A stretch of 64,000 nucleotides of DNA, taken from IMG/VR virus record IMGVR_UViG_3300037493_001906, positions 54,099-118,098 of that record; one strand, written 5' to 3'. Position 1 is the stretch's first letter. The number at the start of each line of letters is the position of its first letter. Source of the DNA: a virus. The translations under genes were made by a program, and so were the position numbers. The notes under the pieces were generated by a model that saw only the letters and a program-made list of their open reading frames with translations, was not told where the DNA came from and did no database searches. Shown here one piece after another: positions 2 through 33,628 of this stretch.

Positions 2-3000
2 CACAACATCTGTAACTCTTATTCTACTAAAATCACCTGTATCAGGATTTTTTAATGTATTGCCAGTTTGAATAGCTACATAATTAGACCTATATAAATT
101 ATTAATTCTGTAAGTAGAATTAAATGTTGCAATTTGAGGACCAATATATTGTGCATGATTAATAACCCTTCTTCTATCACCAGTTGTAGGTATTGCATAA
201 TCTGTATATAAACAATGTGAATGATACCTTAATGCATAATCTTTATAACTAATAACAGCTTTAAAAAAGTTTAATGCAGTGTCTGTACCTTGAGTAAAGT
301 AATTAAAAAATAAAGGAATATTAGCCGTTAAAGCACTCACACTTGCCATGGGCATGTTTTGATATGCCCCATCTGCTTGTTCAATGTTTACTGAACCAGT
401 GTTTAATCCATTATGTGTTGCTGTTTCTACATTATAGGCTTTATTTAAACCATTATATATAAAAGTATCATCAGATTTTCCTAATAAATTATTTGACCAT
501 GAGGTAAGTAAACCACCTTTTAGATTATTATAGTTTTTAAAATAGTTTAATAATGTAGTACCTATTGCTGTACCACTTCCTGTATTATTAAAGTATGCAA
601 TATCTGCTTGAGTAGGAGATGTTACAATTAAATCATTTTGATTAATTGTTGTATCTCCTGTTGTATCATCATTGCCTGATGCATAAGTATTAGTATTTAT
701 GTTTGCAAACAAAGGAAATACTGTTCCTGGACCAAGAGTACCACTAGTATTACGTGTAGCAATATCTGTACTTAAATTATAATTTACTTTATGAGGTAAG
801 TTTTCTTCAGAAAAACCCTGCATATATGGAGATACATAATTTACTTTTCTTTGACCATTCATTGCAATAGCAGCAATACCAAGACCAGCTAAAGCAGATA
901 TTACAAAACAAAAATCTTTAATTAATTTTTCTCTTGGATGCTTATCTGATAATTCAAATTTACCTGTTATATTACCATGAAATTCACCATGAATTTTTAT
1001 TTCTTTAGCAGAGAGGAATGGATTAACAAAAGTTGTATCAGGACTATGAAAACTAAATATATTATTATTAATGGATGCTTGAGGATTATATCCAACTTGG
1101 TCAATCATACCTCCACCATATGGATATTTTTGACCAGTTGTAGGGGTAGTAGATAAGAATGGATCAGCACCAAGATCATTATAGGGATAGTTAGCATATA
1201 AACCTTTTTTACCTGAATTATCAGGTAGAGTATATTCTCTCATATTATTTATGAGACCTTTAGCTAAAATGGTTTTATTACCATTTCTTGTTCCTCTAAA
1301 GATTTCATAACCCACAATACCTACAACAGGAGTACCATCATTTTTAATTGGTGCCTTAATCTTATCAAATACTACACCAAGTATTCTTATATTTCCTGTT
1401 ACAGGATCTGTGTATAGACAAGTAGATCCTGGACCAGTATTTAAATCAGGAAATTTATGATGTCTAATTTGTCTACCACAAAGATCAAATTGACCTTTTA
1501 TAGAAACTCCATTTCCTATTCCTGGTGTTGCAGCTTGAATATTATATGGTAATACTCCTGGAATATTAAAACCAGGATTTAAAGTATTTGTTTCTGAATT
1601 CCATACTTCAGGATTATCATCTGGATATTGTTCTGATGATTCCCAATATCCCATAATACCTTCTCCAATAACAACACCACCATCTGATAATATAGTATTA
1701 GGAGCATTAGTAAAAACAGATGTATTACCTACAAACCATTCTTCATTTGTAAGATCACCAGTTATACTATCTAGAGCATTAGGTATTCCATCTATTCCAG
1801 GTGCATTAAATTTTGGTCTACCAGGAATATGATATGCAGAAGATTTATCTCCTGTATCATATACCCATCTTATAAAAAAAGAATAAACTTCATCTCTTAA
1901 GTAATTAGTTTTATTTCCACCTTTAATATAATAATCTGCAGGATATTCTATAGATTGCCATTTTGTAATAATTTGGTTAGCTAAAGGTTGGTAATTAAAA
2001 TCTTCTTTTGAAGTAGGTCCTGTTCTAATTAAATATGAACCAACAGAATATGTAGCATCTGTTTTATCTATAATAGGTGTCATGATTGGAATCTGTTCAA
2101 TAGGAAAAGTTGGCCAAGTATTATCTATTGTATCAAAACTAAGTCTTTGTTGATGTGTACTATATACACCTGCTAATTTTGCTACTGTTTGTTGATTTAC
2201 TACAGATATAATTACTATTTGAAATTCTGTAAATCTAGTATCTAAACTAGTTAATATAACATCTAATGAACAGGAAGAGTTATTATGATTAAATAATGAT
2301 TGCACATTTGATATATACCAATCACTTATTTTTTGGCCATCTACAGTATATGCAATAGCAACCATGTATGAACCATTGAGTAGTGTTCCTGAACCAAAAC
2401 CATTTTGTACTTCTACACAAGGCGTATCAATAAAGGTAGCTAATCTTAATTTATTACAATCAAGATTCTTTGAATTTATTGTATTATTACAAGTAGCAGA
2501 GTTATTAGGATCTGGAACTTGAATCCAAGGAATAGGACTATTAGGATTTAAATAACTATTATCAGATACTGGGTCAATAGTAAAAGTAAGATTTCTTGTT
2601 GGATTTAATCCATCATCCCAGTATGCCCTATATGTACAACTAACTACAGGTCTTGTTACACCCTTAATTAAATTGGTTGCAGAAAAATTAAGACAAGGAT
2701 CATTTACAACAGTTTCATATGTACATAATGATTCAGTAAAAATACCTATCTCATGACAAGGACCATTAGTAGTATAAATTAACCATTTATCTGCAGTGAT
2801 ATGTATTGTTCCAATGATTTTAGGAATTGAAGTACCACAACCAGTATAGGTTATATTAATACAATTTATATTTGAAGGTTCATTACCTAACTTTCCTAAG
2901 TCACCAGTTTTAGAATTGTTTATAGCATTTCTAGCCTGGGTCCAGGAATCATCAGGTAAGTGAAAATCATTTACATCTTCACTTAACTCTTTGTCAAATC

Positions 3001-3034
3001 TACGTGTATTAATCTGATTAGTATCTTTTGCCAT
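2..3034 (-). CDS. Tail stabilisation protein, crAss-like (P22 gp10-like); 3'-partial, runs off the left edge; missing from the ORF track
   Basis: Manual translation from ATG 3034: MAKDTNQINTRRFDKELSEDVNDFHLPDDSWTQARNAINN...YLRDEVYSFFIRWVYDTGDKSSAYHIPGRP. The frame appeared open to the edge on reading. Position after the ring proteins matches crAss-like order. Confidence 0.75.
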   Translation of the reverse strand, partial: MAKDTNQINTRRFDKELSEDVNDFHLPDDSWTQARNAINNSKTGDLGKLGNEPSNINCINITYTGCGTSIPKIIGTIHITADKWLIYTTNGPCHEIGIFTESLCTYETVVNDPCLNFSATNLIKGVTRPVVSCTYRAYWDDGLNPTRNLTFTIDPVSDNSYLNPNSPIPWIQVPDPNNSATCNNTINSKNLDCNKLRLATFIDTPCVEVQNGFGSGTLLNGSYMVAIAYTVDGQKISDWYISNVQSLFNHNNSSCSLDVILTSLDTRFTEFQIVIISVVNQQTVAKLAGVYSTHQQRLSFDTIDNTWPTFPIEQIPIMTPIIDKTDATYSVGSYLIRTGPTSKEDFNYQPLANQIITKWQSIEYPADYYIKGGNKTNYLRDEVYSFFIRWVYDTGDKSSAYHIPGRPKFNAPGIDGIPNALDSITGDLTNEEWFVGNTSVFTNAPNTILSDGGVVIGEGIMGYWESSEQYPDDNPEVWNSETNTLNPGFNIPGVLPYNIQAATPGIGNGVSIKGQFDLCGRQIRHHKFPDLNTGPGSTCLYTDPVTGNIRILGVVFDKIKAPIKNDGTPVVGIVGYEIFRGTRNGNKTILAKGLINNMREYTLPDNSGKKGLYANYPYNDLGADPFLSTTPTTGQKYPYGGGMIDQVGYNPQASINNNIFSFHSPDTTFVNPFLSAKEIKIHGEFHGNITGKFELSDKHPREKLIKDFCFVISALAGLGIAAIAMNGQRKVNYVSPYMQGFSEENLPHKVNYNLSTDIATRNTSGTLGPGTVFPLFANINTNTYASGNDDTTGDTTINQNDLIVTSPTQADIAYFNNTGSGTAIGTTLLNYFKNYNNLKGGLLTSWSNNLLGKSDDTFIYNGLNKAYNVETATHNGLNTGSVNIEQADGAYQNMPMASVSALTANIPLFFNYFTQGTDTALNFFKAVISYKDYALRYHSHCLYTDYAIPTTGDRRRVINHAQYIGPQIATFNSTYRINNLYRSNYVAIQTGNTLKNPDTGDFSRIRVTDVV

Positions 3035-3105
3035 TATCTAACTATTTTATCACCGTAGAGATCATTAGGATTTTTGTCCCACTGATACCAAGGATAACTC
3101 TTAAA
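3034..3105 (-). pseudogene. Orphaned alternative 3' end (23 codons + TAA) of the 3579-4616 gene
   Basis: Reads FKSYPWYQWDKNPNDLYGDKIVR*, a gapless 12/23-identical match to the current C-terminus FKSYSWFQYDRNPNNYMGERVIR*. Its TAA overlaps the next ATG (TAATG). Confidence 0.85.
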
Positions 3106-3114
3106 CTTACTTTA

Positions 3115-3582
3115 TTATTTATGTTTTACAATATATTCAATTGCTTTAAGCATAATATTTATATTATCTTTAAATTTTCCAATACCTGTATTACAATTAT
3201 CACATAAAAAACCTCTAATTTTTTTAGTATTGTGACAATGATCTAATGAAAGATCTTTTTTTTGTGATGAGTTATGTTCACCACAAATGGCACAATAGCC
3301 GTTGTAAAAATCATAAAGTTTTTTATATTCTTGTTTAGTAATTTTTATACCCTGTTTTTTATAAGAAGACATTTTAACCCCTAATTTAAATTTTTCAGGA
3401 TTTTGTTTTCTATAAATACTTGACTTTATTTTATTTTTTTCTAAATTTTTTGGAAGTTTAGCTCTTTTTTTTGCATCTTCATTTTTACAAAATTTGCAAT
3501 GAGACGCATATCCAGACTTGTTTCTAGGTTCAACTCCAAATAAAGAAACCTCTTTATTTATTTTACATTTTGTACAAATCAT
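3115..3582 (-). CDS. Endonuclease VII-family HNH homing endonuclease
   Basis: CAIC...LSLDHCHNTKKIRGFLCDNCNTGIG motif; N-terminal CxxC...HCxxC zinc-binding region; free-standing between virion genes. Confidence 0.9.
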   Translation of the reverse strand: MICTKCKINKEVSLFGVEPRNKSGYASHCKFCKNEDAKKRAKLPKNLEKNKIKSSIYRKQNPEKFKLGVKMSSYKKQGIKITKQEYKKLYDFYNGYCAICGEHNSSQKKDLSLDHCHNTKKIRGFLCDNCNTGIGKFKDNINIMLKAIEYIVKHK

Positions 3583-4616
3583 CTAATTACCCTTTCTCCC
3601 ATATAATTGTTTGGATTACGATCATATTGAAACCAGCTATAACTTTTAAACATATCATAATATTTTGCATACTGAGCTCTACGATTAGTAGTCCATACTC
3701 TTTTCATTTCTGAGAAGTTAGGAGTATTAACAATAGTAAGAGCATAATTTCTTGCTGCTCTATATCCCTCTTGAATAAGTTGAATCTTAGCAGGACTAAT
3801 ATTCTCATCATTCATGATAAGATTTTCTAGTATTCTTTTTTTAATAGCATACTCATAGTACTCATTTATCATATCATGATCTGGAACCATAAGATTACCT
3901 TCATCATCTTCTAGATCACCTTGATAATTAACATATACTTTACCTGTTGTGAAACTGGTATAGAGATAGCCATTTTTTATCCAAGCAGAATTAACTGAAT
4001 TAAGATACAAATTAGGACATCCACAATCTATTGATTCAGGATTCTCTAAAATTCTAATTGGCATTAATCTCTTATATGTATTAGTAGTTGTATTGATTCT
4101 CTGTACTAACTCATAGCAATCATTTTTACAATTCATAAATACCCTAGGCTTCCTACAGTAGTCACCAAATGGTTCTAAAGGATTGTAGTCTTGTGTAGAG
4201 CATGCAGTAGAAGCAGCAATACAATTGCATGGTTCAAAATTGCATCTATTACAATTGACTGTAGGAGCTGCACAGACATCTATTGTTCCTGGAGTTTCTT
4301 GGTAAGGAGCTATTAGCTTTTCTTCAATCCAAGTACCTTGTGGCATAGCTTGTTGTACAGTAACTTCATCACAAATAAGTGCAAAGTTAAGAGTAAAGAA
4401 ATCATCAGGTAGTTTTACTCTTCCTTTTTCAACATCAAGTAATGCTTCTTTAGTCATCATAATCCTAAGACCAAGATCATAGTTAACTCTCTTAGCAACT
4501 TTAATAAGTTGTTGAGGTTCTATTTGATTTTGTAAAGCAGCATTTTGAAAATCAACCAGAGCTTCACTTAGAAGTTGATCAAATGTTCTATATTTAAGTG
4601 TATAATTATACGACAT
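3579..4616 (-). CDS. Virion tail ring/tubular protein (crAss-like) with a Cys-rich insertion
   Basis: 345-aa ORF between the IHF-like/ring genes and the stabilisation gene; assignment mainly from synteny. Confidence 0.55.
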   Translation of the reverse strand: MSYNYTLKYRTFDQLLSEALVDFQNAALQNQIEPQQLIKVAKRVNYDLGLRIMMTKEALLDVEKGRVKLPDDFFTLNFALICDEVTVQQAMPQGTWIEEKLIAPYQETPGTIDVCAAPTVNCNRCNFEPCNCIAASTACSTQDYNPLEPFGDYCRKPRVFMNCKNDCYELVQRINTTTNTYKRLMPIRILENPESIDCGCPNLYLNSVNSAWIKNGYLYTSFTTGKVYVNYQGDLEDDEGNLMVPDHDMINEYYEYAIKKRILENLIMNDENISPAKIQLIQEGYRAARNYALTIVNTPNFSEMKRVWTTNRRAQYAKYYDMFKSYSWFQYDRNPNNYMGERVIR

Positions 4617-4620
4617 TGTT

Positions 4621-5295
4621 TTATGTTCTTAGTTGACTTTGTTTATCATCTTGCCCTTCTGCATGCATTTGAACCATCAGACTTAATTCTTTTATTGCAT
4701 TTTGCTCTACTTCAGCAAATAGGTATTCAGGATACTGTAGTTTATTATCTTGGATAGGAGCACATTCATCACCATCACAAAGTAAATATTCAATACTTTC
4801 TTCCCATAATCCTTCTACTCTTACTGCTTCCCAAGTTACATTAGGTAAATAAAGATAACCATTTAAATACCAATAATACTTAACATTGTTATATTTAAAG
4901 TTAGTGCTCTTTGTCATGGCTACATATGTAGCTGGCTGAGTTCTATAACAAAGTTGAGAGCCATCAATAGAACTTACTGTTCTAAAGATAGCTCCATAGT
5001 CACCTTCTAATACTGTAGGTAGTTTATCTTTTGTACGCATAATTGTACAATTAGATTTTATATCATTACAACAAGCTTCTACTCTATCTACCTCAATTAG
5101 ATCTACACAAGGTAGTGGAACAAATAAACTTTGAAAGCTTAAGATCTTATTTAATACTTGTTGTTTTCTAATAGATAGTTTAGCATATTTTGTTACTATG
5201 CTATATATAAGGCGATCTGTTAAAAAGGCATCTTCATTGACACCTTTCATAACATTTCTTATTCTTGATATTGATTCTCCTATAGTTAGTCCCAT
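4621..5295 (-). CDS. Virion ring/adaptor protein (crAss-like)
   Basis: 224-aa ORF; helical N-terminus (IGESISRIRN...DRLIY); syntenic position. Confidence 0.5.
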   Translation of the reverse strand: MGLTIGESISRIRNVMKGVNEDAFLTDRLIYSIVTKYAKLSIRKQQVLNKILSFQSLFVPLPCVDLIEVDRVEACCNDIKSNCTIMRTKDKLPTVLEGDYGAIFRTVSSIDGSQLCYRTQPATYVAMTKSTNFKYNNVKYYWYLNGYLYLPNVTWEAVRVEGLWEESIEYLLCDGDECAPIQDNKLQYPEYLFAEVEQNAIKELSLMVQMHAEGQDDKQSQLRT

Positions 5296-5296
5296 G

Positions 5297-5884
5297 TTAA
5301 TCTAGTTCAAATTCATTATAATCTTTTGTATGAAATTCAGTATTTGCTAACATCTGATGCTTATACTTTTTATTTTTAAATAAAACATTAATAGCTGTGA
5401 AGTTTTCTACCTGAACATATTTTTTCCAATTCTCAGGATAATGCTTTGCTACTGCTCTTGTAAATTCTCTTTCTCCTTTAAATTGCCAAAGCTCCCTATC
5501 TTGTAATCTATACTTACTAATAAAGTTAGTATAAAATATTTTAGCTATAAAATTGTCAGATTCAAAATTCCTATGCTTAACATTTTGATTTAACTCTTTA
5601 GATTTTATATAATCAACATTATATTTTTTAGGAGGCATACATGTTCCTATAAATATATAACCTAACTCTTCTGGTAGTTCTGTGCCATCTCTATTTCCAA
5701 TAGCATTTTCCCATATCCTTTTATTAAAAGTAACTATGATAGATTTAAGTGTACTATTTGATATATCTTTATATTGAGGATACTTCTCTTTAAACTTTAG
5801 ATATAAGCTTTCATTAAGAATACTTGTTCTTTTTGCTCTAAATCTTGGAGCATTTAAGTCTGGCTTTTTGAAATAGTTTGTCAT
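5297..5884 (-). CDS. IHF/HU-like DNA-binding protein
   Basis: Helices followed by DGTELPEELGYIFIG, resembling the HU GxVxLxGFGxF turn; crAss-like phages carry IHF-like genes in this block. Confidence 0.65.
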   Translation of the reverse strand: MTNYFKKPDLNAPRFRAKRTSILNESLYLKFKEKYPQYKDISNSTLKSIIVTFNKRIWENAIGNRDGTELPEELGYIFIGTCMPPKKYNVDYIKSKELNQNVKHRNFESDNFIAKIFYTNFISKYRLQDRELWQFKGEREFTRAVAKHYPENWKKYVQVENFTAINVLFKNKKYKHQMLANTEFHTKDYNEFELD

Positions 5885-31982: not shown

Positions 31983-33299
31983 TTATTGTGTTAAATCGTA
32001 AAATGTTAATAATGCAATTCCACCACCTGTTGCAGTAATAGTTCTAGCACATAAACTATAAACATCACTAATCCCTGTAAGTGAAGCACCTATTTGTAAA
32101 TCCCAGTTAAAAGCCATACCAGCACCAGATAAAGCACTTCTTCCTGATTTAGAAGTTATAAGTTCACTATATACAACAGTACCACTAGAAATAGAAGTAG
32201 AACTAATATCAAATTCAACATTAGTATCTGATGATACTGCTGAATAAGAAGCACCTGTTAAAGTACCATTTTTAATTAAAGCTATTTGATAGTTGTCAGT
32301 GGTTGTTGGTAAGAAGTTTACGTTGTAAGGAAGAACAACCGCTCCTAATGAAGTTGATGCAAGTCTAATAGAAACTAATGGTTTATATGTAGTTGTAATA
32401 AAAGTACCTGATGTAGAAGTAGTCATAGTTGCAACGTGTTCTATAGAAGTCTGTTCTAGTCCTCCTTCAGACATTACCGAGGAACAAATTTGTTTTAGAT
32501 TAGAAGTACCTGAAGTTGTTCCTGTATTAGTTATCTCATATCTAATAGGTAAAATTGCTGTTGTCATATAAACAGAATTTCCATATACGTTTGCTGTATT
32601 ATAAGTATGACAAACTATGTATTGTCCATTAATAATAAATCCACATCTAACAGATCCAACACCTAACCATTCAAAATCCATCCATAGAATTTGAGGATGA
32701 GTTAAATCTAATGTAAGTCCACTAGCACCAGTTCCATCTAATTTATCCCCGTTCCACGATGATTGATCAACTTTTCTTGTTGTATCATCAACAGAACCAC
32801 CAATATAAGTTCTTAATACAAATGAATTAGTAGTATTATTTACTTGAAAATAAATTCCATTTTGAGTGCTAAAATAACCTATACGTTGTCTTAAATTTGT
32901 TTTTGCAGTTGCAGCTTGAAATGTAGCAAGAACTAATAAACTTTTACCAGGTTGATAAGTCATTGATCTAAAAGATTGTCTAACTACTTCAGCACCTGAT
33001 GTTGTATTAACAGTCATTTGAACTGTAGCTTCATTAGCTAAATAACTAGTAGATCCACCTGATACAATTGAAGTATCAAATTGATTATCAGCTGCGTATC
33101 TATTTTGAGAATCAAATAATGTATAAGGTTGAGATACTCTTAATCTTCCAAATGCATCTGCTGCCATAGGTCCTACAGGTTGCATTGCAGCACCTGTAGC
33201 CAGGGTAGCATCAATGCTACCAAGAAGCTGCAATGATGCAAGTTGGTAAGGAAAATTATTTCCTTTATTACCCTGATCTCTAAGATTACCTATACTCAT
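31983..33299 (-). CDS. Tail fibre/receptor-binding protein (beta-sandwich, lectin-like)
   Basis: DAFGRLRVSQPYTLFDSQNRY...WMDFEWLGVGSVRCGF; Thr/Ser-rich. Confidence 0.65.
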   Translation of the reverse strand: MSIGNLRDQGNKGNNFPYQLASLQLLGSIDATLATGAAMQPVGPMAADAFGRLRVSQPYTLFDSQNRYAADNQFDTSIVSGGSTSYLANEATVQMTVNTTSGAEVVRQSFRSMTYQPGKSLLVLATFQAATAKTNLRQRIGYFSTQNGIYFQVNNTTNSFVLRTYIGGSVDDTTRKVDQSSWNGDKLDGTGASGLTLDLTHPQILWMDFEWLGVGSVRCGFIINGQYIVCHTYNTANVYGNSVYMTTAILPIRYEITNTGTTSGTSNLKQICSSVMSEGGLEQTSIEHVATMTTSTSGTFITTTYKPLVSIRLASTSLGAVVLPYNVNFLPTTTDNYQIALIKNGTLTGASYSAVSSDTNVEFDISSTSISSGTVVYSELITSKSGRSALSGAGMAFNWDLQIGASLTGISDVYSLCARTITATGGGIALLTFYDLTQ

Positions 33300-33364: not shown

Positions 33365-33628
33365 TTAACTTACTGTAGCTAAAGTTAAGAATGCACTGTA
33401 GTTATTTGCTGTACTATTATATACTATGCTTTTTGATACAAGAAACAAAGAAGGATAGGCTGTATATACAGCATTAATAGATGTTAATAATGCAGCTGTT
33501 GTAGCTTGAGTTACAACAATTTCTTGTAGATTAGATCCAAGTTCTTTACCTGCTAATTTTAATGCTTTAAGTTGAAAAGGAAAGTTATTTCCTTTGTTTC
33601 CTTGGTCTTTTAAATTGCCTACTGACAT
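33365..33628 (-). CDS. Small virion protein sharing its N-terminal module with 31983-33299
   Basis: MSVGNLKDQGNKGNNFPFQL versus MSIGNLRDQGNKGNNFPYQL. Confidence 0.6.
   Translation of the reverse strand: MSVGNLKDQGNKGNNFPFQLKALKLAGKELGSNLQEIVVTQATTAALLTSINAVYTAYPSLFLVSKSIVYNSTANNYSAFLTLATVS

Follow-up and report, generated by a model that had tools for sequence, protein, structure and literature searches.

The stretch of DNA analysed here, called the window below, is 64,000 nucleotides (nt) long and covers positions 54,099-118,098 of the IMG/VR virus record IMGVR_UViG_3300037493_001906. The record has 118 kilobases (kb) and is about 98% complete, and its source is a freshwater crAss-like phage whose host probably belongs to the Bacteroidota. 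We are concerned with one place on its minus strand, where a gene for an HNH endonuclease stands between the genes of ring protein 1 (ring1) and the muzzle protein, accompanied by a duplicate of the ring1 gene end. The order ring2-ring1-muzzle is that of the related genomes L001-L024. The ring1 open reading frame (ORF; 3579-4616, minus strand) encodes 345 residues ending in ...YAKYYDMFKSYSWFQYDRNPNNYMGERVIR, and matches PF24228 (CrAss_Ring_1) with an expectation value (E) of 1.6e-11. Its TGA overlaps the ATG of the HNH gene as ATGA. Behind a TAA TAA, and in the frame of the HNH ORF, there follows a second, start-less gene end of 23 codons, and its own TAA overlaps the ATG of the muzzle gene as TAATG. 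As listed in Table 1, the first ring1 end, the HNH gene, the 9 nt and the second end all lie where a sequence-only reading of the window had put them. That reading had also described the coupling of the second end to a "stabilisation gene". The coupling is present, while the gene is now named as a muzzle protein gene, through its full-length homologue (L024:3590-8803) that matches PF25731 (crAss_MUZ) at 3.4e-33.

Table 1. Features around the ring1/muzzle junction, in window coordinates
Feature	Position	Strand	Remarks
Muzzle protein gene, 5' part	2..3034	-	runs off window start; phrog_37948
Stranded native tail (orphan), FKSYPWYQWDKNPNDLYGDKIVR and stop	3034..3105	-	start-less
9-nt spacer TAA AGT AAG	3106..3114	-	between HNH stop and orphan
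Endonuclease_7-type HNH gene, 155 residues	3115..3582	-	PF02945
Inserted cassette, 545 nt	3101..3645	-	foreign tail, HNH gene and 3' spacer
Expressed cassette-borne tail, FKSYSWFQYDRNPNNYMGERVIR and stop	3579..3650	-	diverges from native allele from 3645 onward
Native ring protein 1 core, residues 1-322, through ...YAKYYDM	3651..4616	-	PF24228
Ring protein 2 gene (context)	4621..5295	-	PF25702, E 6.8e-18

The two gene ends, called the expressed tail and the orphan tail, agree at 12 of 23 residues and at 44 of 72 nt (28 of 72 nt differ), just the combination of similarity and strong DNA divergence that had been reported, and six of the 12 codons conserved between them differ synonymously. With the last 35 residues of ring1 as query, tblastn against the whole 118-kb genome recovered the orphan at E = 3.9e-8. 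The last 15 nt before the orphan (the 9-nt spacer and the preceding 6 nt) match the ring1 codons for KYYDM, AAATATTATGATATG, at 10 of 15 positions, and a match of at least 10/15 has a frequency of 0.004 among all 15-mers of the window. This is a weak hint that the piece may be a relic of these codons. The resemblance to ring1 is weak and confined to these 15 nt, which follow the ...YI.KH[KR] end of the HNH protein. A derivation of the HNH C-terminus itself from ring1 was rejected, since homologues located at other sites also keep the ...YI.KH[KR] end. Ring1 closes at its own TGA and the HNH gene opens at its own ATG, not inside an intron or intein, and no Rfam family matched at E<=1 in 2500-5000, in line with the earlier claim that no splicing is involved. 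Judging by the ATGA overlap, the late message that carries ring1 seems also to serve for translation of the nuclease. Scans for sigma-70 promoters and terminators stayed at chance level, the promoters of the probable Bacteroidota host being outside their coverage. When the whole phage genome was searched for further gene ends stranded close to the genes they belong to, no second case turned up.

How does the ring1 gene end in phages lacking the HNH gene? Relatives were taken from IMG/VR (23 genomes with 45-69% ring1 identity, and L024, which was read separately), and closer ones, given P numbers, were drawn from a large protein collection. The ring1 of P0026 is 94% identical overall to that of the window, and 316 of 326 residues are identical up to the motif FKSY. 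Its 21 differences are distributed very unevenly, with 10 in residues 1-326 (none in 229-326) and 11 in the last 19 residues, so that the switch after FKSY is a sharp one (11/19 in the tail vs 10/326 in the core). P0026, P0145 and P0149, with cores 96-97% identical to the window, end in the orphan sequence at 23 of 23 residues, which is exactly the ...PWYQWDKNPNDLYGDKIVR end that had been predicted for HNH-free alleles. In P0027 (80% identical), 20 of the 23 tail residues are as in the orphan. The expressed tail occurs in identical form in three ring1 proteins of HNH-plus alleles, that is, alleles with the HNH gene (P0025, P0146 and P0147), and in none of the other 119 listed relatives. Among the 24 IMG/VR relatives (23 and L024), an HNH gene was found at the ring1/muzzle junction in none. 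Ring1 directly adjoins the muzzle gene in 22 of the 23, with a one-base overlap of the TAATG kind in 15 and a distance of 1-12 nt in 7; a one-base overlap of ring1 with the next gene is also seen in L024. An abutting arrangement in HNH-free relatives had likewise been foreseen. The ring1 tails of the 23 are hypervariable after MFKS[Y].

The junction can be read in DNA from public data. We considered 20 runs from 10 studies of lake water and freshwater sediment, which hold 27-99% of the sampled words of 1800-5300, and aligned contigs of four of them (X2, X3, X8 and X12) to the window. A 3319-nt contig of run X2, the same size as the contig on record for P0026, contains 2872-3100 and 3646-5300 as one continuous sequence and skips the 545 nt in between (3101-3645). 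The joint 3100->3646 lies in ATG TTT AAG between AA and G, the insertion site named in the sequence-only reading, and six nt (GTTTAA) are assignable to either side. The flanks of this contig show 3/229 and 31/1655 differences from the window (98-99% identical), and the two listed differences from the orphan DNA (3055 and 3070) are both synonymous third positions. Across the site the HNH-minus allele reads ...GATATGTTTAAGAGTTATCCTTGGTATCAG..., and the cassette DNA reads A AGT TAT AGC ... tail ... TGA, HNH, TAA TAA AGT AAG TTT AA, placed between AA and G of ATG TTT AAG AGT TAT. Run X3 also holds the joint at depth 10.8, together with a 609-nt contig across the cassette (3067-3675, 6 differences) at depth 28.5 and a flank contig at depth 41.2, these being contig depths and not allele frequencies; the HNH-plus and HNH-minus forms are present together in this one lake sample. 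In all, the HNH-minus joint was found in public contigs of two studies, and in runs X8 and X12 from two further studies contigs of 24-28 kb are continuous through the cassette. What lies at this place is a 545-nt insertion with defined borders, with a foreign and a native tail, and with natural alleles that have it and natural alleles that do not.

Is the tail in the cassette the old one or the new one? More distant cores, 80-92% identical to the window (P0027, P0148 and P0150), all have a tail of the DLYGDKI[VI]R type. Therefore the orphan type is the lineage's own tail and the expressed tail the newcomer, and by this alignment evidence HNH-minus is the ancestral state. The expressed tail is a foreign, functional-looking copy of the last 19-23 codons (about 19 within the cassette) and the stop, and the native last 23 codons are displaced downstream, intact and presumably untranslated. 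There are also signs of movement between backgrounds. The three HNH-plus proteins P0025, P0146 and P0147 have one identical tail on cores that are 5-11 sites apart. P0146, which is recorded with the same longest contig (119,946 nt) as the HNH protein P0154, has 5 core differences from each of the minus proteins P0145 and P0026 and 11 from the plus protein P0025; it is as near to these minus cores as to any plus core, and the haplotypes are intermixed. Such intermixing fits a transfer of the cassette between backgrounds, and it is also compatible with loss by repeat deletion.

The HNH protein has the features of an intact nuclease of the beta-beta-alpha-Me type. It matches PF02945 with 81.6 bits (cutoff 23.6) over residues 77-151, falls into PHROG endonuclease VII families at 4e-31, and carries an N-terminal CxxC...CxxC. 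The catalytic and metal-binding pattern DH.H ... CD.CN is kept, and D114, H115, H117, C127, C130 and N131 are invariant in 14 homologues. Its nearest relatives of solved structure are Hpy99I (3fc3) at 5e-10 and T4 endonuclease VII (1en7). Both share with it the PF02945 nuclease fold family and the conserved catalytic residues, a similarity limited to residues 78-154; Hpy99I is a restriction enzyme and T4 endonuclease VII a junction resolvase, and neither is a mobile cassette. The gene is single-copy in the genome. The ORF is intact. Between the HNH proteins P0001 and P0154 there is a single difference in 155 residues, and P0154 differs from the window protein by one residue.

There is a further question, what could distinguish a target allele from an immune one? 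In the HNH-free tails of the PW type that were read in DNA (L001-L004, L006, L024 and the X2 contig), position 5 of the tail is Pro, and in three HNH-linked lineages it is Ser, Glu or Asn. The pattern points to the stretch TAT CCT TGG as part of the nuclease target, with position 5 as a possible immunity mark. The tail also seems to be a tolerant part of the protein. In an AlphaFold model of ring1 (57-sequence alignment, mean predicted local distance difference test score (pLDDT) 68) the last helix ends at F323 and residues 323-345 have pLDDT < 50, and among relatives the length of the tail ranges from about 3 residues (L114) to about 38. The cassette thus lies at the border between a folded core and a variable, flexible extension.

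Similar situations are met in other lineages. For example, in a second lineage the ring1 proteins P0063 and P0156 (91% identical) show no difference between about residue 236 and MFKS, after which they continue with FEWHIWDRNPNNMYGEGITR and QPWYQWDRNANNFMGERILG, respectively; P0063 and the HNH homologue P0006 both have a longest contig of 127,550 nt. In a third cluster P0034 and P0168 have tails of the type SYNWYQWDKNPND..., and most of their mates at >=90% identity have SYPWYQWDGNPNNTG.ISR; here P0034 equals the HNH protein P0155 in contig size (36,441 nt), and P0168 equals the HNH protein P0003 (9,095 nt). Neither the expressed tail nor the two other HNH-linked tails were found by scanning IMG/VR, and ring1 had no tblastn match among GenBank phages; when metagenomes and GTDB were scanned with an HNH alignment, only relatives of at most 47% identity came up, including the informative L043 and L044. 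The HNH proteins P0008 and P0009 terminate in NQAFNINVQNRMDRF and ININVEGQMNRY, which are remnants of ring1 tails: they match the tails of P0066 and P0047, and 0 of 300 shuffles reach the observed score. It appears that the nuclease ORF there runs on into an orphan of which a part has been deleted. In L043, L044, L114 and L115, HNH relatives with 45-50% identity separate ring1 from the muzzle gene, with clean junctions and no orphan, and because the orphan is missing from all four at the same junction, the spare tail is not universal in the HNH family. Put side by side, the lineages suggest a series from a full orphan through a fused remnant to none.

Taken together, we consider it quite probable that in this freshwater crAss-like phage the ring protein 1 gene has been invaded at its 3' end by a cassette with a free-standing homing endonuclease. 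The process might run as follows. The cut made by the HNH enzyme would fall within or close to the conserved ...TATGATATGTTTAAGAGTTATCCTTGG... stretch of HNH-minus alleles, and in a co-infection the repair of the break from an HNH-plus genome would copy the cassette in. Pairing would involve the ring1 core at the left end and, at the right, either the orphan tail of the donor itself or the muzzle gene. In the invaded genome neither copy of the tail should be a target any more: the expressed copy would escape through the rewriting downstream of the junction, notably at tail codon 5, and the orphan through having lost the site's upstream half. Splicing would not be needed to keep the ring gene whole, as the cassette brings its own end to the boundary of folded core and flexible tail. 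Later decay or deletion of the orphan may lead to fusions of HNH gene and orphan, and then to clean intergenic residents in other lineages. A wider generalization is also conceivable, and we hold it slightly less likely to be right than wrong. In it, gene-end replacement would be a regular, as yet unpublished way of entry for phage homing endonucleases into essential genes; in this HNH family the spare tail would act as an immunity determinant through the codon-5 site; the element would cycle from full orphan through a fused or eroded one to a clean resident; and a precise, repeat-mediated loss would restore the native gene.

Several points weigh against this account of invasion and spread. 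No donor was found for the foreign tail, with which other sequences agree at 16-17/23 residues at best. The Pro-codon pattern comes from only three linked lineages, two of them linked indirectly, which is a small sample, and the linkage of HNH gene and ring1 in the second and third lineages is read solely from contigs of equal size. The distant members of the HNH family that have no orphan may insert cleanly between genes. The depths in run X3 do not give the frequencies of the two alleles, and single HNH-minus alleles could be revertants that arose by deletion between the imperfect TTTAAR AGTTAT repeats. The last point can be extended to an explanation of its own, by which the cassette entered once, the minus alleles arose by deletion between the FKSY repeats, and the nuclease need not be active today. 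An exact 6-nt repeat, GTTTAA, within an 11/12-nt repeat does flank the cassette, its deletion yields exactly the observed joint, and with the orphan intact such a revertant would work. However, the orphan-type tail of the 80-92% cores makes HNH-minus ancestral, the identical plus tail sits on cores that differ by at most 11 sites and are intermixed with minus ones, which fits transfer at least equally well, and the HNH ORF is intact, with one residue different between P0001 and P0154. We therefore regard loss in place of spread as unlikely.

Might the gene serve the phage instead of itself? A single illegitimate recombination could have brought in a neighbour's gene end together with an HNH protein of the packaging type or an endonuclease VII-like resolvase. 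PF02945 is named for the T4 resolvase, HNH proteins aid terminases in some phages according to PMC5304195, and the gene lies in a late structural operon with promoter and terminator signals not above chance. Against a phage function, near-identical phages and most relatives do without the gene, distant lineages have it again at one site, the tail switch is repeated in other lineages, and the single genomic copy of the gene is located in the tail-gene block of ring protein and muzzle genes, not beside a terminase gene. Such a one-off event is a quite improbable explanation, more so than loss. As for a chance resemblance or an assembly artefact behind the second tail, the tail is short (23 codons) and the DNA is AT-rich; this explanation is refuted by the E value of the genome-wide tblastn search, by the identity of the orphan with a working tail at 23/23 residues in contigs of independent origin (JGI, ENA and Logan; 3.3-65 kb), and by HNH-plus contigs in runs of three further studies. 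Invasion by a homing cassette thus stays the preferred reading.

Some other observations were made in the same genes and elsewhere in the genome. In L024, which is HNH-free, an ORF for a GIY-YIG endonuclease (1821-2513; PF01541, 6.8e-12) separates the genes of ring proteins 2 and 1, overlapping as ATGA and leaving no spacer; the same module thus has another nuclease family at the neighbouring junction. Small ORFs of 128-147 residues with the HExxH-like motif HEIFH and no Pfam match (L114:3970-4356 and L022:4776-5219) sit between ring1, or the HNH gene, and the muzzle gene, and the two copies are alike at their C-termini. The ring1 homologue P0140 (582 residues) has an extra Cys/Thr/Val-rich segment of about 230 residues in its central region, a part that varies in any case and is modelled poorly (residues 105-140 in the protein of the window). 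In the muzzle gene, two patches (window 1945-2280 and 2458-2601) are diverged in contigs otherwise 96-98% identical. One is equal in length (334 nt) and the other changes from 142 nt to 175 nt, and both are seen in several runs; from these alignments they are taken as local mosaic or hypervariable segments. Two adjacent genes without a Pfam match, at 31983-33299 and 33365-33628 on the minus strand (438 and 87 residues), are 74% identical over their first 27 residues (MS.GNL.DQGNKGNNFP.QL; E 1e-11), with no nuclease gene between them; this looks like a common N-terminal module of paralogues. Outside the window, the small genes G000:C1:22-342 and 1123-1497 both have ...QQAFRWFREK... and the end ...EEAELACL.KLIEIVK, 74% identical over 23 residues, and are whole-gene paralogues, not a stranded end. 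Both pairs had been candidates for further orphans and were rejected as paralogous genes.

What does the locus mean beyond this phage? An essential virion gene is open to a selfish nuclease, with neither intron nor intein, if the nuclease brings a substitute gene end. The alleles before and after the event occur naturally in the same lake samples and provide a testable target, the HNH-minus site versus the two candidate immune versions. One source of the mosaic, hypervariable gene ends in crAss-like phages would also be explained. For annotation there is a warning, to take short gene ends that lack a start and follow a nuclease gene as scars of such an event and not as noise.

Free-standing homing endonucleases without introns are known from T4-like phages, for example SegB, and mobA with the gene 60 bypass cassette. 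The nuclease gene of the window is like them in its place between or in conserved genes, in its sporadic presence and absence at one site among close relatives, and in the spread expected in co-infection by break repair. It is further like mobA in that the cassette brings extra sequence which keeps the invaded gene working. The Seg and Mob elements differ in that they lie between genes or split a gene in two, and a duplicate gene end was not found described for them. More generally, no published description of a phage homing endonuclease with a duplicated gene end was found in a literature search that was incomplete for subscription journals, and Barth et al. 2023 (PMC10448857) contains no description of such an element.

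The closest parallels come from eukaryotes. The comparison with fungal mitochondria, made already in the sequence-only reading, holds in every feature of the layout: the mORFs form gene hybrids in Allomyces macrogynus atp6 and in atp6, atp9, cox2 and nad3 of Glomus sp. (PMC3630166), and for the Allomyces mORF endonuclease cleavage was shown biochemically, as cited there. In both systems the ORF of an endonuclease occupies the 3' end of a host gene, and a foreign, diverged C-terminal piece lies upstream of this ORF in phase with the gene; the original C-terminus is left behind downstream, (near) identical to its counterpart in a close relative free of the element, and no splicing is required. 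The differences are that a phage structural gene is hit here and an organelle gene there, with about 19 codons replaced here, and that the mORF nucleases are of the LAGLIDADG or GIY-YIG kind while ours is an Endonuclease_7-type HNH protein. Similarly, the WHO elements of the yeasts Torulaspora and Lachancea have FBA1 as their homing target and exchange its 3' end (PMC7282813). With every integration they, too, give an essential gene a new 3' end, again without splicing of an intron or intein, and their cleavage is allele-specific, to which the presumed cleavage by the phage enzyme may be likened. They differ in being intein-like LAGLIDADG and zinc-finger proteins of a eukaryotic nuclear genome, and in building clusters of old gene ends by repeated homing, in contrast to the single orphan in the phage. 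The HNH protein belongs to PF02945, outside the LAGLIDADG and GIY-YIG families of the mORFs and outside the WHO protein families. Thus, by analogy, the phage cassette works like mORF and WHO elements without membership in their families. The mechanism is already established in fungal mitochondria and yeast, and what is new is the phage as host system and the nuclease family; a phage case with population data would extend gene-end replacement to viruses.

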